A stretch of DNA of 64,000 bases from Escherichia phage KIT06 (OQ349392.1); one strand, 5' to 3'. Positions 4,210-49,440 are shown, numbered from the stretch's first letter. Numbers and translations: made by a program. Notes: generated by a model not told the origin, from the sequence alone.

Positions 4210-4225
4210 AAATTTTCACAAAACG

Positions 4226-4264
4226 GTTTACATACCACAAGGACTGTGGTACTATACAACTATC
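4226..4264 (+). promoter_or_regulatory. T4-type early promoter (GTTTAC, 18 bp spacer, TACTAT) including conserved 20-mer TGTGGTACTATACAACTATC
   Basis: GTTTAC at 4226-4231, TACTAT at 4250-4255, upstream A-rich tract; 20-mer shared with 3 other sites. Confidence 0.6.
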
Positions 4265-4282
4265 AGCTACGGAGGAGTAAAA

Positions 4283-4546
4283 ATGAAATTTAAATTTTAT
4301 TACGCTAAACATAAAATAACTGATGAGTTTGTGTCAGTTGAATATTCTAGCGATGATGAAGGTATGATTTATACTCGTTTGGGACTATCGCATTGGGAGT
4401 CTGATACGCCTTATTTTTCAACTCCTGAAGAAATTACACGCTTAGTTAATGGTCATATGAATGACCACTGGGATGTAATTCTTACAGATAGTCTTAAAGC
4501 GGCTATTAATAGTAATGAAATGAAAATCGCTGAGATTGAACTATGA
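4283..4546 (+). CDS. Hypothetical protein (87 aa)
   Basis: ORF with SD GGAGGAG 8 nt upstream of ATG. Confidence 0.5.
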   Translation: MKFKFYYAKHKITDEFVSVEYSSDDEGMIYTRLGLSHWESDTPYFSTPEEITRLVNGHMNDHWDVILTDSLKAAINSNEMKIAEIEL

Positions 4547-4731
4547 GTTCATTATGGTGGTGTTTTGTTTGGTTAATTAGTATTCCATTAATTTGTTTAA
4601 CATTTACTTTTGTGATGAGGTTATTATGAAAATTTTGAATTCTGTACTTATTGCTTGTGCGTGGTGGGTTGCGCAAGTTTCGGCAGTAGTGATTGGTATT
4701 CACATTTATTACGAATATTTTTAAAAAAGTT

Positions 4732-4770
4732 GTTTACAAGACTGTTCCTCTGTGGTACTATACAACTATC
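4732..4770 (+). promoter_or_regulatory. T4-type early promoter (GTTTAC-N18-TACTAT) with conserved 20-mer
   Basis: GTTTAC 4732-4737, TACTAT 4756-4761, 20-mer 4751-4770. Confidence 0.6.
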
Positions 4771-4789
4771 AACTACGGAGGAACAGAAA

Positions 4790-4903
4790 ATGAAAAAGAT
4801 TGTTAAAGCTATATGGAATGTAGTTATAATACTAGTAGTTTTGAGTATATTCCCAATCGTTTTAATGATTGATGTATTAAACGCTTACTTTGGATTTATG
4901 TGA
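4790..4903 (+). CDS. Small hydrophobic peptide (37 aa, predicted single transmembrane helix)
   Basis: ATG at 4790 preceded by SD GGAGGA; inside longer track ORF 4655..4903. Confidence 0.35.
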   Translation: MKKIVKAIWNVVIILVVLSIFPIVLMIDVLNAYFGFM

Positions 4904-7664: not shown

Positions 7665-7810
7665 GTCCATTCATTGGTATTACAAGCGCTGCATTAGTAT
7701 CCGGTAGCATTTTACTGGCGGGTTTAGGTGTTGTTCCAGCCGTAGCAGGAGGTCTTCTTGCGTTCGGAATTCAACGTGTTATCATGACAGTTATCACAGT
7801 CATGCAGTAA
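7661..7810 (+). CDS. Small hydrophobic peptide (49 aa)
   Basis: ATGA overlap with gene 52 stop; glycine/alanine-rich hydrophobic sequence. Confidence 0.4.
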   Translation: MSPFIGITSAALVSGSILLAGLGVVPAVAGGLLAFGIQRVIMTVITVMQ

Positions 7811-7815
7811 TTTTA

Positions 7816-7841
7816 GGGAGAGCCTCGGCTCTCCCTTTTTT
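7816..7841 (+). terminator. Rho-independent terminator (GGGAGAGCC...GGCTCTCCC hairpin plus T6)
   Basis: Near-perfect inverted repeat followed by TTTTTT. Confidence 0.7.
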
Positions 7842-7866
7842 ATTTCAAAATTTTTTTCACAAAACG

Positions 7867-7905
7867 GTTTACAACCAAAGCATACTGTGGTACTATACAA
7901 CTATC
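7867..7905 (+). promoter_or_regulatory. T4-type early promoter upstream of motA (GTTTAC-N18-TACTAT)
   Basis: GTTTAC 7867-7872, TACTAT 7891-7896, conserved 20-mer 7886-7905. Confidence 0.65.
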
Positions 7906-7937
7906 AACTACTGATACAGAATTACGGAGATTAGAAA

Positions 7938-17942: not shown

Positions 17943-20900
17943 TTATTCAACCCATTCAAATTTAACCGTTTTATTCGCTGGGTCAGGAATAATGCGAACA
18001 TTACCAATTCGTAAGAAATCACGAATAGTAAGATTCCCCATTGTAGCATTATCAGATGGTAAAGCACCAATATCAGATGGTTGAGGAGGGTTACCTCCGT
18101 CAAATACCTGAACAAAACTCGACCAAGAGTTTTTGGTTTTCTGCCATGTACGTGTCCAGCGAGTGGTACGTGCTTCTGGAGTCGTTGGATAAGTAATCCA
18201 ATCTTGGTAAAGCGAATCAAGTGTGTTACCAAATTGAGTCAATGTACCAGGAGATTTAACTTCTTCGCCACGTTCTAAGTATGGAAGTCCAGTCACTTCA
18301 TTAGTTTTTTCAACCATTTTAAAATAACCCGGGAATTGGTTATAAGTAGCTGAATCATTAATATCGATTGACCAGAATCCTACAGTATCAGATGTTGGCG
18401 CACGGGTATATAAGTCAGATGTTTTAATGCCCTGAGAACGAATTCTCGAGTTAACAGTTAAGCCACCTGAGTTTATAGTAACACCTTTGGCAACGATTAA
18501 GCCTTCACCAATCGTTACTTGACCGGATGCATTGTTAATAGCTAAAGGACGTAATCCATTAAAACCACCAGTTTGGTCACCTGAATTAGTTAGCATAAAA
18601 TAGACATTAGCACCATCATTACGAATAAAGAATCCGTAATTACCACTAATAGCTCTAAAAGCATTCGATGATTTGCTAATGAATTCACCATTGGCTGTAA
18701 CTGAACGACCGAATGTTGCAGTGCCATTCACATTCATCAAACCGGAAGCATTAACATTTATTGGCATTACAGTACCATTAATGATAAACGCTATACTACC
18801 ATCTTTATTGCGTTGAGAATAAAAGTGATGAGATGTTTCATCGCCAACTTCAAACACGGTAGAACGAGTCGTATCCGAGCCGCCGCCAAACTGATTTCCC
18901 CATACTCTGATAGTCATCGTCTGTGCTGGGTTAGTTCCAGTTTGAGGTCCTTTTTCAAAAATCAGACGAGTTGCTGTTCCAGAGTTAGAAATAGTTAATG
19001 TACTATTTGCCGAAACTGAACCACCAAACGTAGCAGTACTAGATGATACAAGAGGGGCACTCAGATTCGTTTGTTGGGTTAAGGTTAGTGAACCATTAAC
19101 CGTCTGTGCAATATCCCTACGAATGAACTGGGATGAATCTAGACCATCCAGTAAATTACTATCTACGGCTTTTGCTTTTAATGGCAAGTAATTTGCTAAT
19201 ACACGGTTTAATTCATACGGTGATACTGCATAGCTATTTTTCTCGTATAATTCTAACGACTGTGTTGAACCAACTGTATCATTACCAACGAATGTAATTG
19301 AACCAGATGAAGTTTTAACAAAGCCTCTTATCGCAGTAGTAGCTGCCCAAGTAGGTTCACTCTGCGCAATCCATTTTAAATTTTTTGGAGATACAGCAGT
19401 ATTTGCTGACGTTCCAGCCACAGTTTCAGTCTGAGTTGCAACTTTAATAACACCTTCTTGCGATTCGGTAGATTTAGTACCTAAAAGCTTTTTAGGAGTT
19501 ATTAAAACATTATCCAATGTTCCTGCAGCAGCTTCAACTTGTGTAGCTACACGAAGTGTACCACGCTGTGTCTCATTTGCTTCAAGAATATTAAGGGTAT
19601 AATGGTCCCAGAGAGTTCCTGATTCAACTAATCCAGATAGAGCAACAACAGAAGTACGATCAGTACTATTAAATCTGGTTTTAATTTTTAATGGTGTAGA
19701 GATACGAGTATCGTCGACGCCCGCGTCGAATTCAACTTGTGTAGCAATTTCAGCTATACCACTTAAACTTTCAGTTGCTATACGGTCATTTAAAGTTTTA
19801 GGAGTGACTGCACGAGTATAATCAGTTCCTGTATTAACTTCACTTTGCGTAGCAATTTCAATTAAACCAATTCTTCCATCAGTTGATGTCTTTTTATGTA
19901 ACGTTTCTGGCGTTACAACAGCATTTGCCCATCCTTGCTGACTTTGTCCAGCAATTACTTCACTTTCAACTGCTAAAATTACTGCACCCTGTTGAGTAGG
20001 CGTAGCTTTATACTGATCCAAAGCTTTAGGTGAAACAACTAAATTATTAGTGTTTTTATTATAAACGTTTGTACCATTTAATTCACGACTAGAAGCTGGA
20101 GTAGCTCCTGCGGTAGATACAAAGGTTACAATACCAGATAATGATTCAGAACCTTGACGAGCTTGAAGCTTTTTAGGAGTGATGATTGTAGTATCATCAG
20201 TACCTGCATTAGTTTCCTGTTGCGTAGCAATTTCAGCAACACCTCTGCGAGTTTCAGTAGCAGTTCTTTCATTCAGCTTTTTAGGAGTGATGATAATATC
20301 GTCAGCAAAAGAGAATGTGGTGTTCTGATTCACTTGAGCAGTAGTTGCTATTCTTGCAATACCTCTGCGAGTTTCAGTAGCAGTGCGATTAGCTAACGTT
20401 TCTGGAGTAATTGCTAATTCTTTTTGTGGAGAATTTTCTAAATCGACGTTAGCTTGAGCTTGTGTAGCTAAAGCAATTACGCCTAATCTTGCTCTAGTAG
20501 AATCATTTAAAGAATCAACTCTTTCTACGGTTGGAACGTTTTGCTGTACAACCCAATATTTTCCATCAGAATCTTCTATATAAGCAAGCTCTAAAACTGG
20601 AACATAATTAGTTTCACCGTTAAAAACCAATTCTTGAACAGTTACCCATTTAGTTTCAGGCGGATATTCTGAACGTTTTGGGAATTGCAGCAATTGAACT
20701 GAAGAAGCAATTTTATCTTCACCGGCAGCTTTGATTTTAACTGTTTGTCCTTTTCTCATGTAATTCATGGAAATTTTAACAGTATCACCAACAGAAATAT
20801 TAGTTGGAAGCTGAAGTTCAATTGTTTGAGCTGTTCCGTTATTCGCACCAAATACCATAACTTCTTCATTTGGACGAATATTTGAATTAGTTGTTATAAT

Positions 20901-25086: not shown

Positions 25087-25108
25087 TAGATTATATTACT
25101 AATTAATT

Positions 25109-25133
25109 GGGGACCCTAGAGGTCCCCTTTTTT
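25109..25133 (+). terminator. Rho-independent terminator after gene 32
   Basis: GGGGACC-CTAGA-GGTCCCC hairpin plus TTTTTT. Confidence 0.7.
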
Positions 25134-25158
25134 ATTTCAAAAATTTTTTCACAAAACG

Positions 25159-25197
25159 GTTTACAACCAAAGCATACTGTGGTACTATACAACTATC
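25159..25197 (+). promoter_or_regulatory. T4-type early promoter (GTTTAC-N18-TACTAT), near-identical copy of the motA promoter cassette
   Basis: GTTTAC 25159-25164, TACTAT 25183-25188; 70 bp identical to 7836-7905 except 1 nt. Confidence 0.65.
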
Positions 25198-25210
25198 GGC
25201 AATACTGCTG

Positions 25211-25506: not shown

Positions 25507-25887
25507 ATGTATACTGGTAGAAAATATGAACTTGTTCCAAGACTTATTGATACATTTATTAATTATAGTCCACGTTCTAATTCATCAATAGTTAAAGCTA
25601 TTCGAGATAATGGCGGATGGTTTGAAGTTAAAGAAGTTTCCTTCGCTAATGGATATAAAGCAGTAAAACACATTGAATGCGCAAATGGAAAGCATTTTTA
25701 CCTTAAAGATAGACTTTTAGAAATTTGTGAAGACGAATTTCATTGTTTTCGCGAGTATAAAGAATCGATTTCTGAAGAAGATGAAGTCAAAGACAAGGTT
25801 TCTGGCGTAACAAAAATTCACTGCATTGTAGACGAAAACAATGTAGATGAAATCATTGAACTTTTGCGAAAAACTTTCAAAAAGTAG
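25507..25887 (+). CDS. Hypothetical protein (126 aa)
   Basis: ORF with SD GAGGAAAA upstream. Confidence 0.5.
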   Translation: MYTGRKYELVPRLIDTFINYSPRSNSSIVKAIRDNGGWFEVKEVSFANGYKAVKHIECANGKHFYLKDRLLEICEDEFHCFREYKESISEEDEVKDKVSGVTKIHCIVDENNVDEIIELLRKTFKK

Positions 25888-25916
25888 TTTACAGAAGGGT
25901 AGTAGTGTGATACTAT
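25887..25916 (+). promoter_or_regulatory. Early promoter with internal inverted repeat (GTTTAC-N18-TACTAT)
   Basis: GTTTAC 25887-25892, TACTAT 25911-25916, GGGTAGTAGT/ACTATTACCC inverted repeat. Confidence 0.55.
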
Positions 25917-25941
25917 TACCCTATCAACTAAGGAGAATAAA

Positions 25942-32375: not shown

Positions 32376-33962
<1,587 letters not shown>

Positions 33963-33965
33963 GCT

Positions 33966-34019
33966 GTTTACAAGTCCCTCGTGTTGTGTTACAGTAGTCT
34001 TACTGACATAACATGAGGA
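33966..34019 (+). repeat. 54 bp promoter/5'UTR cassette, copy 1 (GTTTAC, imperfect inverted repeat, SD)
   Basis: Identical 54-mer also at 49061-49114. Confidence 0.8.
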
Positions 34020-34023
34020 CTTT

Positions 34024-34530
34024 ATGATGGATTTACAGCTTATTACTACTGAAATGGTCGTTGAAGCATACGGTGATACTACAGATGGGATTTCTGTATT
34101 TAAAGGAAATCGTCGAGTTGGATATATCACCGATCTTAAGAAAGATTTAGCTAAGCAAGTCAAGCGGAAAACGACTATTAAAGAATATCGAAATCGTCGC
34201 CTTGAGCAAGCCCGTGATATGCTTCCTGATGCGGTTGAGGAGATGAAAGTCTTTTTAGAAAATCAGCTTGCGAAATATGATTGTGATGTGTTCATTAATC
34301 AGACTCAACCTAATGTTCATATTAATAGCTGTAAATGCTACATCATCGTTAATCCTTTGACGGGAAAACATCGTCTTGGAATTAGTAATCCAAATCGTAG
34401 TGCATCAGATATGGCAGAAGATGTTGAGGCATGCTTTAAAATTTCTAAATCTCCGGCTGAACATCATATTTTAATTAACGGTCTTTCTCAAGACGATATT
34501 GTAGAGGTTATTAAAACTTTATGCATGTAA
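34024..34530 (+). CDS. alc: Alc, inhibitor of host transcription on cytosine DNA (167-168 aa)
   Basis: Length and position between rnlA and pseT-region ORFs; start may be the second ATG at 34027. Confidence 0.78.
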   Translation: MMDLQLITTEMVVEAYGDTTDGISVFKGNRRVGYITDLKKDLAKQVKRKTTIKEYRNRRLEQARDMLPDAVEEMKVFLENQLAKYDCDVFINQTQPNVHINSCKCYIIVNPLTGKHRLGISNPNRSASDMAEDVEACFKISKSPAEHHILINGLSQDDIVEVIKTLCM

Positions 34531-40113: not shown

Positions 40114-40143
40114 GTTTACAGTATAGTTCCTTTGTGATAGTAT
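40114..40143 (+). promoter_or_regulatory. Early promoter (GTTTAC-N18-TAGTAT)
   Basis: GTTTAC 40114-40119, TAGTAT 40138-40143. Confidence 0.55.
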
Positions 40144-40170
40144 TATCTTACACAAACAAAGGAGAATAAA

Positions 40171-40503
40171 ATGAAAACGATTAATCTGAACGCTACAGTT
40201 AAAACTAAATGCTTCAATGGTAAATATGATGAAACTATGTGGTTCTTAATGGCAGTTGAAGGTGATATTATTGAAGTAGAAACAACAGAAGGTATGGGAA
40301 CAGATTTCACCTTTACAATTCAAGTTCATAATTTCTTTACTGGTTGGATTTATGAATTGAATACAGTAATCGTTGGAAAAATTGAACAAAATGAATTGGG
40401 TGAATGGTATTATGTTACAGCTCGCCAGCGTGCCGAACGCTTAATTGAGAAGATGAAAAAAGTTGGTAAACTTGACATGCAGCACTGGAAAGTAGTAAAA
40501 TAA
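40171..40503 (+). CDS. Hypothetical protein (110 aa)
   Basis: ORF with SD AAGGAGAA. Confidence 0.5.
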   Translation: MKTINLNATVKTKCFNGKYDETMWFLMAVEGDIIEVETTEGMGTDFTFTIQVHNFFTGWIYELNTVIVGKIEQNELGEWYYVTARQRAERLIEKMKKVGKLDMQHWKVVK

Positions 40504-44854: not shown

Positions 44855-44876
44855 AGGCCTTCGGGCCTTTAATTTT
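44853..44876 (+). terminator. Hairpin terminator
   Basis: AAAGGCC-TTCG-GGCCTTT hairpin followed by AATTTT. Confidence 0.55.
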
Positions 44877-44883
44877 ATAAATA
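44876..44883 (+). promoter_or_regulatory. Late promoter TATAAATA upstream of alt
   Basis: Exact TATAAATA about 20 nt upstream of the alt ATG. Confidence 0.6.
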
Positions 44884-44903: not shown

Positions 44904-47000
44904 ATGATGGAACTCATTACAGAATTATTTGACGAAGATACTACTCTTCCGATTACAAACTTAAATCCAAAGAAGAAAATACCGCAAATTTTTTCAGTTC
45001 ATGTTGATGACGCAATTGAACAACCAGGCTTTCGTTTATGTACCTATACATCTGGAGGTGATACTAACCGTGATCTAAAGATGGGCGATAAAATGATGCA
45101 CATTGTTCCTTTTACATTAACTGCTAAAGGTTCAATTGCTAAATTGAAAGGTCTCGGTCCAAGCCCAATTAATTACATCAATTCAGTTTTTACTGTTGCG
45201 ATGCAAACGATGCGTCAGTATAAAATTGATGCCTGCATGCTTCGTATTCTTAAGTCTAAAACTGCCGGTCAAGCTCGACAAATTCAAGTTATTGCTGATA
45301 GACTTATCCGTAGTCGTTCGGGTGGCAGATACGTCCTTCTTAAGGAACTCTGGGATTACGATAAAAAGTACGCATATATTCTTATACATCGCAAAAATGT
45401 ATCACTAGAAGACATTCCAGGAGTTCCGGAAATTAGTACCGAGCTCTTTACTAAAGTTGAATCGAAAGTCGGCGATGTTTATATCAATAAAGATACTGGA
45501 GCTCAAGTAACTAAAAATGAGGCAATTGCTGCATCTATTGCGCAAGAAAATGATAAGCGTTCTGACCAAGCTGTAATCGTTAAAGTTAAAATTTCCCGTA
45601 GAGCAATTGCGCAAAGTCAGTCATTGGAATCTTCTAGATTTGAAAGCGAATTATTCCAGAAATATGAATCTACCGCAGCTAATTTCAATAAACCCGCTAC
45701 AGCTCCTTTAATTCCCGAAGCAGAAGAAATGAAGCTTGGAATTAATTCATTAGCTTCTAAAACTAAGGCAGCAAAAATTATTGCTGAAGGAACTGCAGAT
45801 GAACTTCACTATGACTATAAATTCTTTTCAAAAAGTGAGGTTAATGAAGTTTCTGAAAAAATTAAAGACGTAATTCTTAATGCGATTAAAAATGAACCAA
45901 CTACTTCAATAAAATGTTTAGAGAAGTATGCAGCAGCTATTAATAAATTCTTTGAAGAATATAAAGATACTTGGCTTGATAAACATAATAAAACCCGTAA
46001 AGGACAGCCAGATGAAGTCTGGGAAGAAATAACTAAAAATTCCTGGAACGCAGCAAAAACTAAATTCCTCAAACGAATGATTTATAGCTTTTCTGGAATT
46101 GGTGCAGGTCCAATGATTGATATTACTATTGCCCGTGATGGTTCTAAATATACTCCATCACAAAAGCGCGGCATTAGAGAATATTGTGGTTCAGGATATA
46201 CTGACATCAATAATCTTCTTTTAGGACGCTACAATCCAGAACGATATGATGTAATGAGTGAAAAAGAAATTGAATCTGCGATAAATAATTTAGATTCAGC
46301 CTTTGAAAATGGTGACCGTATACCAGAAGGCATTACAGTTTATCGTGCTCAAAGTATGACTGCTCCTATATACGAAGCGCTAGTTAAAAATAAAGTGTTC
46401 TATTTCAGAAATTTTGTATCTACTTCTTTAACTCCTATCATTTTTGGACGTTTTGGAATTACACATGCTGGTATCGGTCTTTTAGAACCAGAAGCTCGTA
46501 ATGAATTAACAGTTGATAAAAATGAAGAAGGAATAACTATTAATCCGAACGAAATAAGAGCGTATAAAGAAAATCCTGAATACGTTAAAGTTCAAATAGG
46601 ATGGGCAATTGATGGAGCTCATAAAGTTAATGTTGTATATCCAGGGAGTCTCGGAATAGCAACAGAAGCTGAAGTAATTCTACCACGCGGATTGATGGTC
46701 AAAGTTAATAAAATAACTGATGCTTCTAATAATGACGGAACAACATCTAATAACACAAAACTCATTCAAGCTGAAGTTATGACTACGGAAGAACTCACCG
46801 AATCAGTAATTTATGACGGTGACCGTCTAATGGAAACTGGTGAAGTAGTTGCAATGACAGATGATATTGAAATAGAAGACAGAGTTGACTTTGCATCATT
46901 TGTTTCATCAAATGTTAAACAGAAAGCAGAATCATCTCTCGGAATTATTGCGTCTTGCATAGATATTACAAACATGCCTTACAAGTTCGTTCAAGGATAA
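44904..47000 (+). CDS. alt: ADP-ribosyltransferase Alt (about 697 aa), capsid-packaged
   Basis: N-terminus MELITELFDEDTTLPITNL as T4 Alt; C-terminal half has R / S-T-S / E-x-E ART signatures (YR, FVSTSL, EAEV); start probably ATG 44907. Confidence 0.85.
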   Translation: MMELITELFDEDTTLPITNLNPKKKIPQIFSVHVDDAIEQPGFRLCTYTSGGDTNRDLKMGDKMMHIVPFTLTAKGSIAKLKGLGPSPINYINSVFTVAMQTMRQYKIDACMLRILKSKTAGQARQIQVIADRLIRSRSGGRYVLLKELWDYDKKYAYILIHRKNVSLEDIPGVPEISTELFTKVESKVGDVYINKDTGAQVTKNEAIAASIAQENDKRSDQAVIVKVKISRRAIAQSQSLESSRFESELFQKYESTAANFNKPATAPLIPEAEEMKLGINSLASKTKAAKIIAEGTADELHYDYKFFSKSEVNEVSEKIKDVILNAIKNEPTTSIKCLEKYAAAINKFFEEYKDTWLDKHNKTRKGQPDEVWEEITKNSWNAAKTKFLKRMIYSFSGIGAGPMIDITIARDGSKYTPSQKRGIREYCGSGYTDINNLLLGRYNPERYDVMSEKEIESAINNLDSAFENGDRIPEGITVYRAQSMTAPIYEALVKNKVFYFRNFVSTSLTPIIFGRFGITHAGIGLLEPEARNELTVDKNEEGITINPNEIRAYKENPEYVKVQIGWAIDGAHKVNVVYPGSLGIATEAEVILPRGLMVKVNKITDASNNDGTTSNNTKLIQAEVMTTEELTESVIYDGDRLMETGEVVAMTDDIEIEDRVDFASFVSSNVKQKAESSLGIIASCIDITNMPYKFVQG

Positions 47001-47003
47001 ATC

Positions 47004-49061
47004 ATGGAACTTATTACAGAATTATTTGACGGCGCTTCGGCGCCGGTTGTTAACTTAAATCCTAAGCATAAAATACCTCAAATTTTTGCTATTCAAGCCG
47101 GCGAAGAAAGTGTGCTTCCTGGATTTAGATTTTGTACATACACCTCTGGCGGTGATACAAATAAAAACGTTAAGCCAGGCGATAAAATGATGCATATCGT
47201 AATGATAGGTGTTAATGAGAAACTATCATTAGTTAAACTTAAAAACTTGGGTGGAAATCCAATTGGTGTCATTAATGCAGTTTTTGATACTGCTCTTCAA
47301 ACAATGAAACAGTATAAAATTGACGCATGCTTATTCCGCGTACTAAAGAGTAAAACAAATGGCGCTGCTCGTCAAATGCAAGTTATTGCCGACCGTTTAG
47401 TACGTACTAAAGGAGCAGGTCGATATGTTCTTTTAAAGGAAATCTGGGACTATGATAAGAAATATGCATATATTATGGTTTACCGTAAAAATGCCAATTT
47501 AGAAGACATTCCAGGTGTACCTCCTATTTCAACTGAGTTATTCACAAAAGTTGAATCAAAGGTTGGTGATGTTTATGTAGATGTTAAAACAGGTAATGCT
47601 GTTCCTAAAGCTGTTGCTGTTGCTGCTTCTATTGCTTTAGAAAATGATAAGCGTACGGATCAAGCTGTTATTCAGAAAACTAAAATTAGCCGTCGATTAG
47701 CAGCTCAGGCTCAATATTCTACTGTCGATGCTTCACTTCAGGGTGATAGCTTCGCTGCTAAGAAATATCAAGAGTTTGAATCTAAAGTTCCGGTATATAA
47801 AGCAGAAGGACCAATGAACTCTGGCGTTATTCAGGTTGGTTCAAACTTCAGTAAAGGAGCTATCGGTGGTATGAGAAGTGCTTCTCGTTTTAAATCTAGT
47901 GATTATGAACTAGAAAGCTTCAGAAATCATATTGCATTGGCTCATGCACGTTTACGTGATCCATCTATCAAGTTACAGAGCGATATAACATATCAAGGTT
48001 CTCAGGAATATTTAAAGAATAAAGAATTTTTTGATTATAAAACTGATAAAATTTTAAGCGATCTCGCTGACATTAATATTTCTAATAGCTTTGATGTTAT
48101 TAAGAAAATTATCAATGATTTAGTTAAAGGTTCTAAAGCCACGCCAGATGAAAAGGTAGCTATTGTTCAATTTGTCATGAATGGCATTTATAAATTGATT
48201 AATGAGTCTGCTTCTCAAGCGTATGAATATGCAAGTACTGAAGTACCCCCAAAAGGATTAACTCGGGCTGAGTCTGATGTAATTGAAGATTATTGCGCAG
48301 ATTCATATGTTGAAATGAACTCGTTCCTTTTAGGTAAACCAGATTCTACTCGTGAAGAATACATGGAACGAGCTATTAAACACATCGAGACAATGGATTC
48401 TGCCTTTGCCAAAGGATCAGTTCTTCCTCCAGGAACTACGCTTTATCGTGGACAAGAAGTTACTTTTAAAACTTTACGCCATAATATTGAAAATAAAATG
48501 TTCTATTTCAAGAACTTCGTATCAACATCGCTTAAACCAAATATCTTCGGTGAGTATGGTAAAAACTATATGGCCCTAGATGATTCTGGTGCAGTATTTT
48601 CTGGTGAAGGAGAAGGTTCAGTTGATGCTGAAGATTTAATGCATATGGGCAGTCACTCTGCTTACGCGAATGAAGATGCTGAAACTAGCGTGGGTATGGT
48701 AATTAAAGGGGCTGAGCGAATCAAAGTTATCGTTCCAGGTCATTTATCAGGATTTCCATCAGAAGCTGAAGTTATTCTACCGCGCGGAATTTTACTGAAG
48801 ATTAATAAAGTAAGTACGTACTTTATGAAAGAAACTGCTTATAACAAGTATCTAATAGAAGGTACAATCGTTCCTCCTTCTGAACAATTAGAGGAATCGG
48901 TATATGATGGCGAGCATCTAATGGAAACTGGCGAAGTTCGTCCAATGGCTGGATTTAATCAATTCCTTGTAGAAGAATCAAAAGAAGAGGAAAACGAAGT
49001 TTCTCAAATCTTGGCTTCTTTGGTTAACATCAACGGAATGTCTAAAAAGTTCAAAATGTAG
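47004..49061 (+). CDS. Second Alt-like ADP-ribosyltransferase paralog (685 aa)
   Basis: N-terminal ~230 aa closely parallel the upstream alt; divergent C-terminal half keeps YR...FVSTSL...EAEVILPRG motifs. Confidence 0.7.
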   Translation: MELITELFDGASAPVVNLNPKHKIPQIFAIQAGEESVLPGFRFCTYTSGGDTNKNVKPGDKMMHIVMIGVNEKLSLVKLKNLGGNPIGVINAVFDTALQTMKQYKIDACLFRVLKSKTNGAARQMQVIADRLVRTKGAGRYVLLKEIWDYDKKYAYIMVYRKNANLEDIPGVPPISTELFTKVESKVGDVYVDVKTGNAVPKAVAVAASIALENDKRTDQAVIQKTKISRRLAAQAQYSTVDASLQGDSFAAKKYQEFESKVPVYKAEGPMNSGVIQVGSNFSKGAIGGMRSASRFKSSDYELESFRNHIALAHARLRDPSIKLQSDITYQGSQEYLKNKEFFDYKTDKILSDLADINISNSFDVIKKIINDLVKGSKATPDEKVAIVQFVMNGIYKLINESASQAYEYASTEVPPKGLTRAESDVIEDYCADSYVEMNSFLLGKPDSTREEYMERAIKHIETMDSAFAKGSVLPPGTTLYRGQEVTFKTLRHNIENKMFYFKNFVSTSLKPNIFGEYGKNYMALDDSGAVFSGEGEGSVDAEDLMHMGSHSAYANEDAETSVGMVIKGAERIKVIVPGHLSGFPSEAEVILPRGILLKINKVSTYFMKETAYNKYLIEGTIVPPSEQLEESVYDGEHLMETGEVRPMAGFNQFLVEESKEEENEVSQILASLVNINGMSKKFKM

Positions 49062-49114
49062 TTTACAAGTCCCTCGTGTTGTGTTACAGTAGTCTTACTG
49101 ACATAACATGAGGA
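49061..49114 (+). repeat. 54 bp promoter/5'UTR cassette, copy 2
   Basis: Identical to 33966-34019. Confidence 0.8.
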
Positions 49115-49121
49115 ACACAAA

Positions 49122-49412
49122 ATGAAATCTTCTTTACGCTTTTTAGGTCAAGAACTTGTAGTTGAAGGCGTTATTCCTGCTGATAATGCTTTTAATGAAG
49201 CAGTTTACGATGAATTTATTAAAATTTTTGGAACAGATAAAAAGTTCGGAATTTTTCCTTCTGAAAATTTTTCAAAGCCAGAACAGACTGAAAGCATTTT
49301 CCAAGGTGTAGTAACAGGCAAATTTGAGTCAGAAGCTCCGGTAAAAATTGAAGTTTATATTGAAGACAGTTTAGTTGCTTCAGTTGCTGCTTTTATTTCA
49401 TTCCGTAAATAA
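49122..49412 (+). CDS. Hypothetical protein (96 aa)
   Basis: ORF with SD GAGGAACA; followed by bidirectional hairpin. Confidence 0.5.
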   Translation: MKSSLRFLGQELVVEGVIPADNAFNEAVYDEFIKIFGTDKKFGIFPSENFSKPEQTESIFQGVVTGKFESEAPVKIEVYIEDSLVASVAAFISFRK

Positions 49413-49418
49413 AAACAT

Positions 49419-49436
49419 GGGGACCGAAAGGTCCCC
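49419..49436. terminator. Bidirectional hairpin terminator between convergent genes
   Basis: GGGGACC-GAAA-GGTCCCC perfect 7 bp stem; A-run upstream and T-rich downstream. Confidence 0.6.
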
Positions 49437-49440
49437 GTTG

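Follow-up and report, generated by a model that had tools for sequence, protein, structure and literature searches.

In bacteriophage T4 the genes e, soc, 49 and I-TevI carry inhibitory hairpins in their start regions, with a promoter inside the hairpin region (PMC3014915). A second kind of described module, the PeSL cassettes of T4-type phages, joins a T4-type sigma-70 promoter, a stem-loop and a Shine-Dalgarno (SD) sequence (Arbiol 2010, Comeau 2014). In the phage pair PST and T4 the PeSL promoter has the form TTTACW-N17-TAYWAT and the stem-loop can lie between the -35 and -10 elements or over the -10; translation is not discussed in the PeSL papers, where the word itself does not occur (PMC2839356, PMC4122927). 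Here we describe a related arrangement in a stretch of 64,000 nucleotides from Escherichia phage KIT06 (OQ349392.1), in the following called the window. The phage is a Tequatrovirus, i.e. T4-like, and the + strand of the window corresponds to the minus strand of the T4 reference. Two identical copies of a 54-bp cassette precede the genes alc and alt.-3, and in both an early-type promoter is embedded in a predicted hairpin that would hide the SD of the downstream gene. No earlier description or experimental test of a hairpin at alc or alt.-3 was found in a search that did not extend to the classical promoter catalogues and the PST PeSL figure; the review on the T4 hairpins (PMC3014915) does not mention either gene. 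Both promoters, and perhaps the repeat too, may already be listed in Miller et al. 2003, in Liebig and Rueger 1989 or in the PST figure.

The 54-mer GTTTACAAGTCCCTCGTGTTGTGTTACAGTAGTCTTACTGACATAACATGAGGA occurs twice in the whole window, at 33966-34019 and 49061-49114, in both cases on the + strand and without a mismatch. A third copy with up to three mismatches is not present in the window, and the 54-mer was not matched in any of 100 shuffled sequences. Since the flanking bases differ on both sides (gct before and C after copy 1, gta before and A after copy 2), the length of the repeat is exactly 54 bp, reaching from the G of GTTTAC to the final A of GAGGA. This confirms the repeat reported in a first-pass annotation of the sequence, which had placed the copies about 15 kb apart and pointed to a GTTTAC -35-like element, GAGGA and a downstream ATG, all of which are found at both copies. 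Copy 1 is situated in the 64-bp gap between rnlA and alc, 3 nt behind the rnlA stop codon. Copy 2 overlaps the second alt gene by one base, beginning on the final base of that gene's stop codon. The distance from GAGGA to the start codon is 7 nt at both genes if the alc start of the T4 annotation (34027) and the alt.-3 ATG at 49122 are used; an alternative in-frame ATG of alc is located at 34024. The product of alt.-3 is dispensable, and mutants with a C-terminal extension of this protein allow T4 to escape the CmdTAC defence system (PMC11618068). The coordinates of all features are compiled in Table 1.

Both copies contain a sigma-70 early-type promoter, TTTACA-N17-TGt-TACAGT (33967-33995 and 49062-49090, promoter scan), whose layout matches that of other T4-type early promoters in the window, including the TG in front of the -10. 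Similar to the T4 early promoters described in the literature (PMC2988021), the cassette combines the -35 element GTTTAC/TTTACA (GTTTACA) with a 17-bp spacer, TGn, a -10 of the form TAnnnT and a downstream gene of the early class. It differs from them in a weaker -10 (TACAGT in the window; the better TATAGT in T4 and most relatives) and in the A-rich upstream stretch, which is clear only at the alt.-3 copy. There, CTAAAAAGTTCAAAATGTA precedes the -35 and resembles other early promoters (families D3/D4); at copy 1 AGAAGGATACTAAGCT adjoins the -35 and A/T-rich sequence follows only farther upstream. From this anatomy we infer that the cassette is active as an early promoter. The predicted start sites were placed by promoter geometry; a genome-wide T4 start-site map was not found in the literature. 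The late-promoter motif TATAAATA was not found within the cassette. The RegB endoribonuclease has its target in GGAG within the SD of early mRNAs. A RegB-type site was considered and rejected, GGAG being absent from both SDs (AUGAGGA); several other early leaders in the window do have GGAG. A MotA middle promoter was likewise rejected, as neither copy appears in the published MotA list (Hinton 2010) and no MotA box is found in the sequence.

In GenBank record MZ726795 a T4 early promoter, overlapped by a hairpin, is annotated at the alt.-3 copy. In the same record the hairpin (L011, 16513-16562) is labelled a rho-independent terminator though it has no U tract, and the identical alc copy carries no annotation at all, which indicates inconsistent automatic annotation.

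Read as RNA, both copies are predicted to fold into hairpins of high stability, and none of 200 shuffled sequences per copy folded as stably. The hairpin of copy 1 consists of 22 bp closed by the loop GUCU, with two G·U pairs and two small bulges, and covers cassette positions 7-57; its three basal pairs make use of alc-specific flank bases. An imperfect inverted repeat had been noticed before and is real, but the 10 and 9 nt assigned to its arms were too small, since the hairpin spans nearly the whole cassette. The 5' arm is formed by the promoter spacer and the -10, the 3' arm by the leader and the SD GAGGA. The earlier proposal that the SD is drawn into a hairpin is thus supported by structure prediction of both leaders, with stabilities far above those of the shuffled controls. 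The antisense strands fold less stably (-17.9 kcal/mol for copy 1, -19.7 kcal/mol for copy 2). Among the Rfam covariance models none matches copy 1 up to E = 1. At copy 2 no hit falls on the cassette; three weak hits (E 0.23-0.99, below gathering score) are located in or at the 3' end of alt.-3.

The position of the predicted start site gives the hairpin its particular character. The 3' arm makes up the first ~20 transcribed nucleotides, with the predicted +1 at its second base. RNA initiated at the cassette promoter would hold the 3' arm only; it is therefore predicted to be unstructured (z-scores of +0.8 for alc and +0.3 for alt.-3) and its SD to be open. As a measure of accessibility we used the free-energy cost of unpairing the SD at all five of its bases. 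For alc, the predicted opening cost amounts to 0.2-0.5 kcal/mol in RNA from the cassette's own promoter versus 7.8-7.9 kcal/mol in read-through RNA; for alt.-3 the corresponding values are 1.4-1.6 and 11.0-11.3 kcal/mol. A shift of the start site by 2 nt in either direction leaves the result unchanged. The first-pass annotation had suggested shared transcriptional and possibly translational control of the two genes. Here a correction is needed: the 5' arm lies between the -35 and the predicted start, and the hairpin cannot form in the promoter's own mRNA. With the 5' arm absent from own-promoter RNA, the hairpin would act only on RNA arriving from upstream and would in this way sort transcripts by their origin.

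We consider it fairly probable that each copy represents an early promoter embedded in an SD-hiding hairpin and that translation proceeds mainly from own-promoter RNA. RNA polymerase starting at the cassette promoter would make an mRNA devoid of the 5' arm, whose SD is free, and alc or alt.-3 could be translated immediately after infection. RNA from upstream, i.e. from rnlA and the nrd/denA units in the case of alc and from the alt genes and their late promoter in the case of alt.-3, would carry both arms, fold the hairpin and bury the SD. Early transcripts from the cassettes would then be the main source of Alc and Alt.-3, whose synthesis would fade upon shut-off of the early promoters although the region is still transcribed. 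This proposal builds on the sequence anatomy, the fold statistics, the covariation and distribution given below and the early class of both T4 genes; start site, promoter activity and translational effect are deduced from these.

The cassette shares two properties with the hairpins of e, soc, 49 and I-TevI. The SD is sequestered on long RNA initiated upstream, which for the cassette is a prediction backed by covariation of the alc helix, and the transcript of the internal promoter itself lacks the 5' strand of the helix, as far as the start site deduced here is correct. In both cases the origin of the transcript would decide on expression of a gene that lies in overlapping transcription units. 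In contrast, the internal promoter of those genes is a late one (TATAAATA) and delays expression, whereas that of the cassette is an early sigma-70 promoter for which early-only expression is predicted. A further difference is that the spacer and -10 of the cassette themselves form the 5' arm.

Read-through RNA is expected at both cassette sites. The late motif upstream of the first alt gene is the likely source of late RNA running through copy 2; in a terminator scan no terminator-like site was found on the + strand between this motif and 49417, where the terminator hairpin closing the unit begins. Likewise, no convincing terminator was found between the nrd/denA/rnlA genes and alc. Some 30 nt before copy 1, still within the 3'-terminal part of rnlA, AAAATTATAAAAAATTT at 33929-33936 differs by one mismatch from the late motif TATAAAAA, and MZ726795 annotates a late promoter at the equivalent site. 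Transcripts from this motif, if it is active, would include the complete hairpin of copy 1.

Published T4 expression classes (PMC9697503, Table S2) can be compared with these expectations. RNA and protein are both early for alc and alt.-3, as they are for gene 30.8. For rnlA the RNA is early and the protein late; denA and alt combine middle RNA with late protein, and alt.-1 and alt.-2 are assigned middle RNA. On the alt.-3 side the kinetic class thus switches at the cassette, from middle RNA of alt, alt.-1 and alt.-2 to early RNA of alt.-3. The timing in T4 agrees with the cassette being an early promoter and with protein synthesis confined to the early period, but does not prove the mechanism.

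Table 1. Features of the two cassette sites and their surroundings in the window (positions counted from the first nucleotide of the stretch).
Feature	Position	Strand	Remark
Cassette, copy 1	33966..34019	+	between rnlA and alc; exact match
Cassette, copy 2	49061..49114	+	between second alt and alt.-3; exact match
-35 hexamer TTTACA, copy 1	33967..33972	+	promoter scan; T4 early-type consensus
-35 hexamer TTTACA, copy 2	49062..49067	+	promoter scan
Extended -10 TGt + TACAGT, copy 1	33987..33995	+	promoter scan, relatives compared
Extended -10 TGt + TACAGT, copy 2	49082..49090	+	promoter scan
Predicted transcription start, copy 1	34002	+	from promoter geometry, 7 nt past -10
Predicted transcription start, copy 2	49097	+	from promoter geometry
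Predicted RNA hairpin, copy 1	33972..34022	+	free energy (dG) -25.7 kcal/mol, z -4.4
Predicted RNA hairpin, copy 2	49069..49116	+	dG -24.3 kcal/mol, z -4.6
Shine-Dalgarno GAGGA of alc	34015..34019	+	sequence
Shine-Dalgarno GAGGA of alt.-3	49110..49114	+	sequence
rnlA (gene 63, RNA ligase 1), upstream of copy 1	32838..33962	+	
alc (inhibitor of host transcription), 167 aa	34027..34530	+	start as annotated in T4
T4 late-promoter motif TATAAATA upstream of alt	44876..44883	+	motif scan
First alt gene	44904..47000	+	
Second full-length alt paralogue, 685 aa, upstream of copy 2	47004..49061	+	
alt.-3, 96 aa	49122..49412	+	function unknown
Bidirectional terminator hairpin between alt.-3 and gene 54	49417..49438	.	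end of alt/alt.-3 unit

The two alt (ADP-ribosyltransferase) genes listed in Table 1 are tandem full-length paralogues (44904-47000 and 47004-49061) with about 71% identity in repeated DNA blocks. In T4 the second paralogue is present as fragments only (alt.-1, alt.-2); this accounts for the shorter distance between the cassette copies in T4, 13.2 kb as against 15.1 kb in the window.

To judge how widely the arrangement is conserved, the 54-mer was compared with other phages by blastn. It was found at 997 places in 499 phage records, with two per genome in essentially every Tequatrovirus, T4 and T2 included; both sites are syntenic in the 499 records. Exact-pattern scans of the IMG/VR and JGI metagenomes yielded 7 and 8 loci, numbers that do not allow population statistics. 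Variation was analysed in 17 Tequatrovirus genomes (of ~500) with both copies recovered, chosen for divergence. Within one genome the copies differ at 0 to 6 positions. The 3' arm (positions 36-54) is invariant save for position 40, variation being restricted to the 5' arm and the loop. Not a single position separates all alc from all alt.-3 copies, and the variants C15T, G16A, T27C, G29A and G32A occur at both loci in different genomes. G29A and G32A are usually found together, at alc only, at alt.-3 only, or at both. Such shared variants point to repeated short-patch exchange between the two sites. It is on them that the claim of ongoing gene conversion is based, and not on a permutation test for concerted evolution, which was not significant in this divergent sample (2.06 differences within versus 2.35 between genomes, p = 0.12). 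The TACAGT of the window is a minority state of the -10, common at alc and present at alt.-3 in ~16 of 497 records, a count inferred from the seed requirement of megablast. The variant C11T was observed in alt.-3 copies only. It converts a C·A mismatch contributed by the alt.-3 flank into a U-A pair and leads to a perfect stem (dG -25.7 kcal/mol, z -6.0); this change apparently repairs the hairpin in adjustment to the new alt.-3 flank.

Homologues of alc are found in more than 1,100 phage records, and ten further lineages were surveyed, each with one or two leaders. In six of them (Karamvirus, Gelderlandvirus-like contigs, Winklervirus, Marfavirus, Dhakavirus and an unclassified Klebsiella phage) the rnlA-alc gap contains TTTACA-N16/17-TAnnnT, and the spacer, from its base 1 or 2 onwards, pairs with the SD region. 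The stems comprise 13-17 bp with interruptions, and their sequences differ by lineage. RNAalifold applied to a MAFFT alignment of the alc leaders returned no structure because MAFFT had mis-registered the 3' arms. This problem was solved with a covariance model, built from four well-aligned leaders and used to align seven. In the seven-leader alignment 96.2% of the cells are paired and 8 of 16 pairs have changed on both sides; none of 500 shuffles was as good, and sliding the partners by 1-3 columns lowered the paired share to 35-46%. The model also finds both window copies, the T4, T2 and DalCa copies and two other window promoters. As it registers the Tequatrovirus cassette unlike the latter's own best fold, Tequatrovirus was excluded from the covariation count. 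The predicted difference in SD opening cost between read-through and own-promoter RNA, in the following the SD-opening differential, amounts to 7.3-12.6 kcal/mol in eight alc leaders. The alc version of the module thus appears to be conserved with compensatory changes across at least seven lineages of the Tevenvirinae, and we propose that the hairpin of the alc leader is ancestral in this group. A different layout is seen in Gaprivervirus VR20 (L018). About 90 nt 5' of alc this phage has a G+C-rich terminator-like hairpin with a -35-like TGTACA in the loop, followed by CATAAT; a second hairpin, GGUUCCAUCA...UGAUGAGGACC, still buries the alc SD.

The alt.-3 leaders of other genera are of a different kind. 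Gaprivervirus, Mosigvirus, Marfavirus, Dhakavirus and Karamvirus possess a native TTTACA-17-TAnnnT promoter at alt.-3 with a short hairpin within the spacer (e.g. CCACAAGGAYGTGG) and the SD context ...CATGAGGA...; outside Tequatrovirus the alt.-3 SD is unmasked, with a differential of 0.5-3.5 kcal/mol in five genera. The interior of the Tequatrovirus cassette, CCCTCGTGTTGTGTTAT, resembles the alc leaders of other genera (cf. ACCTCGTTTGTTCGTGTTAT in Marfavirus), the stem runs 3 bp into the flank at alc only, and the end motifs GTTTACAA and CATGAGGA are already present in the native alt.-3 promoters. For these three reasons the direction of copying was probably from alc to alt.-3, with the alc module replacing the native alt.-3 promoter in an ancestor of Tequatrovirus. 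The simplest history is an exchange at alt.-3 bounded by the shared GTTTACAA... and ...CATGAGGA. Later exchange between the sites, together with purifying selection on the 3' arm, would keep the copies nearly or fully identical. The earlier notion of shared control over two unrelated genes holds as far as the control signals are common; the sharing itself probably goes back to copying, and no functional link between the two proteins is shown.

Several observations weigh against sorting of transcripts by the hairpin. The energies given above are equilibrium predictions which leave out co-transcriptional folding and ribosomes, and both start sites are deduced from promoter geometry. A ribosome terminating at the upstream stop codon, which lies as close to each copy as described above, might unpair the stem base, above all at alt.-3. 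The SD is unmasked in the alc leaders of Mosigvirus phiEC1, Lazarusvirus and Tulanevirus, so masking is not indispensable. Some of the variants found in Tequatrovirus (G9A+T10C, G18A, G29A, G40T) make the stem weaker, and there is no significant excess of changes that preserve the pairing: among transitions in the SD-pairing part of the 5' arm, three preserve and one disrupts the pairing, with an expectation of 5/13. In the cross-genus alignment C·A and A·C mismatches are about as frequent as G·U pairs, and covariation alone cannot separate an RNA hairpin from a DNA palindrome.

Among the other explanations, translational coupling deserves most attention. On polycistronic RNA the hairpin would prevent independent initiation, a ribosome finishing rnlA or alt would melt the base of the stem, and alc and alt.-3 would not be silenced but translated in proportion to the upstream gene. 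The close stop codons at both copies speak for it, as does the position of the rnlA stop 0-6 nt before TTTACA in other genera; the SD-pairing bases begin ~13-16 nt past the stop, near the reach of a terminating ribosome. At alc, however, these bases lie 16-20 nt past the stop and probably out of reach, and the build-up of RnlA and Alt late in T4 infection, compared with the early class of the proteins Alc and Alt.-3, argues against tight coupling. We regard coupling as an unlikely principal explanation, but as a serious complement that can coexist with masking of the SD in read-through RNA, opening of the stem base being more plausible at alt.-3 than at alc.

The cassette might also be a promoter-terminator of the PeSL type, in which the stem-loop attenuates or terminates incoming transcription and so insulates the early unit, the repeat serves as a homology patch for shuffling and the pairing of the SD is incidental. 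The likeness is considerable: a module of ~50-60 bp, repeated in intergenic positions, that combines a sigma-70-like early promoter with a stem-loop, SD and start codon (PMC2839356, PMC4122927), proposed as substrate for homologous exchange, of which the copying from alc to alt.-3 would be an example. Some published stem-loops are positioned between the -35 and -10 or across the -10, one of them terminated transcription in a reporter, WebGeSTer called the hairpin in MZ726795 a terminator, and UUUAU follows copy 1. PeSL stem-loops have been read as terminators or attenuators, often of the type GGGG...CCCC; the stem of the cassette, by contrast, reaches the SD, and a U tract is missing after copy 2 (ACACAAAAUG) and after the alc hairpins of other genera. 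An intrinsic terminator, defined by a G+C-rich stem and a U tract, was rejected for both copies in the terminator scan. The 3' arm has its end precisely at the SD in each lineage; a terminator would not require this. The cassette is furthermore located in conserved gene blocks (syntenic in the 499 records) and not in hyperplastic regions flanking variable ORFs (open reading frames); the promoter replacement at alt.-3 nonetheless represents an exchange with promoter and SD motifs at its borders. The cassette contains no indel boundary, the joint of the T4 alt.-2 deletion being ~17 nt upstream, and the ~13-15 kb between the copies hold essential genes, so that excision is not viable. Finally, the -10 of the form TAYAGT departs from TAYWAT at one position. 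A role as attenuator is possible for copy 1 and unlikely for copy 2 and the other genera; as an account of the cassette as a whole we judge the promoter-terminator to be rather improbable.

Even less can be said for identity without special function, i.e. for two ordinary early promoters homogenised by ectopic gene conversion with the hairpin as a neutral passenger. T4 recombines on ~50 bp of homology (PMC2839356), and the variants found at both loci together with the absence of a fixed difference between the loci are what this explanation requires. It does not account for a hairpin stability far beyond chance, for the retention of the alc hairpin with compensatory changes across genera, for the adjustment by C11T to the alt.-3 flank or for the nearly invariant 3' arm in the 17 genomes. 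Gene conversion accounts for the identity of the copies and not for the conserved structure, and we find it improbable as the whole explanation.

A role in processing or stability, with host RNase III cleaving the stem of read-through RNA or the stem shielding the 3' end of the upstream mRNA, so that this mRNA becomes separate from that of alc or alt.-3, is very improbable. Substrates of RNase III have about the size of the 22-bp stem, and the stem is positioned exactly at the gene boundaries; the shorter, interrupted stems of other genera (13-17 bp) speak against it, and the constant inclusion of the SD would remain unexplained. A DNA-level role, with the palindrome modulating the promoter as a cruciform or as the operator of a dimeric DNA-binding protein, is the least credible alternative: the inverted repeat does overlap the spacer and -10, and covariation is equally compatible with DNA pairing, but the arms are 17-27 nt apart, the stem sequence is unlike in every genus and offers no conserved recognition sequence, an operator would have no reason to reach the SD in every lineage, and G·U pairs, bulges and a sense RNA more stable than the antisense by 5-8 kcal/mol favour RNA.

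The same design was searched for among ten TG-extended early-type promoters of the window with an identifiable SD and start codon. Half of them, 4227, 4733, 33967 (copy 1), 40115 and 49062 (copy 2), show a predicted SD-opening differential of at least 4.5 kcal/mol, and the other five show none. By these predictions the promoter-in-hairpin design is recurrent in the window and not unique to the cassette. Going one step further, T4-like phages may use a general "promoter-of-origin" code, in which an early promoter is placed in the 5' arm of an SD-masking hairpin and the module can be moved to another gene by short-patch gene conversion, as proposed for alt.-3. Translation would then be limited to promoter-proximal transcripts and would cease with the silencing of the early promoters, irrespective of later read-through. 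We offer this generalisation tentatively and would put it somewhat below an even chance.

The strongest other case of this kind is the early-type promoter at 4733-4792, upstream of a 37-aa membrane ORF like ndd.4. Its spacer pairs with its own SD (CTGTTCCTCTGTGGT...ACTACGGAGGAACAG; dG -23.2 kcal/mol, z -6.6 to -7.1 depending on the stretch folded), and opening of the SD is predicted to cost 0.3 kcal/mol in RNA from its own promoter and 13.7 kcal/mol in read-through RNA, a differential of 13.3. Gene 30.8 (40171-40503) is preceded by an early promoter of the same design at 40115-40173 (UUCCUUUGU...ACAAAGGAG).

The window contains further repeats. Near-identical T4-type early promoter cassettes of family D3 are located at 4213-4273, 4719-4779, 7854-7914, 25146-25206 and 25874-25934. 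Between the cassettes at 4213 and 4719 lies a 67-aa ORF (4283-4486) that T4 lacks at the corresponding place, between denB and ndd.6; for the ndd region, PeSL-mediated ORF swaps between T4 and PST have been reported (Comeau 2014, PMC4122927). A 98-bp repeat at 7808-7905 and 25100-25197, 17.3 kb apart and 87% identical, consists of a terminator hairpin rich in G+C, followed by a T run and an early promoter, the classic terminator-then-promoter layout of a PeSL; its stem sequences differ with the pairing kept in both copies. In addition, five copies of a 68-nt unit (60-74% identical) with irregular spacing of 108-375 bp are found at 19435-20411 and probably represent a repeated protein motif in a structural gene.

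T4 genes are arranged in overlapping early, middle and late units, and RNA of early genes is consequently made long after their own promoter is off. If the proposed mechanism is true, a hairpin hiding the SD would confine proteins such as Alc, the terminator of host transcription, to the first minutes of infection without a repressor or nuclease. The logic of the lysozyme, soc, 49 and I-TevI hairpins would be reversed, and the stem-loops of PeSLs, so far read only as terminators and recombination sites, would acquire a second, translational meaning. The alt.-3 copy would show, in a clean natural case, how short-patch recombination can carry a regulatory module from one gene to another. In practical terms, the finding may be of use for the annotation of T4-like therapeutic phages, where the hairpin has passed as a terminator, and for the design of phage expression cassettes.

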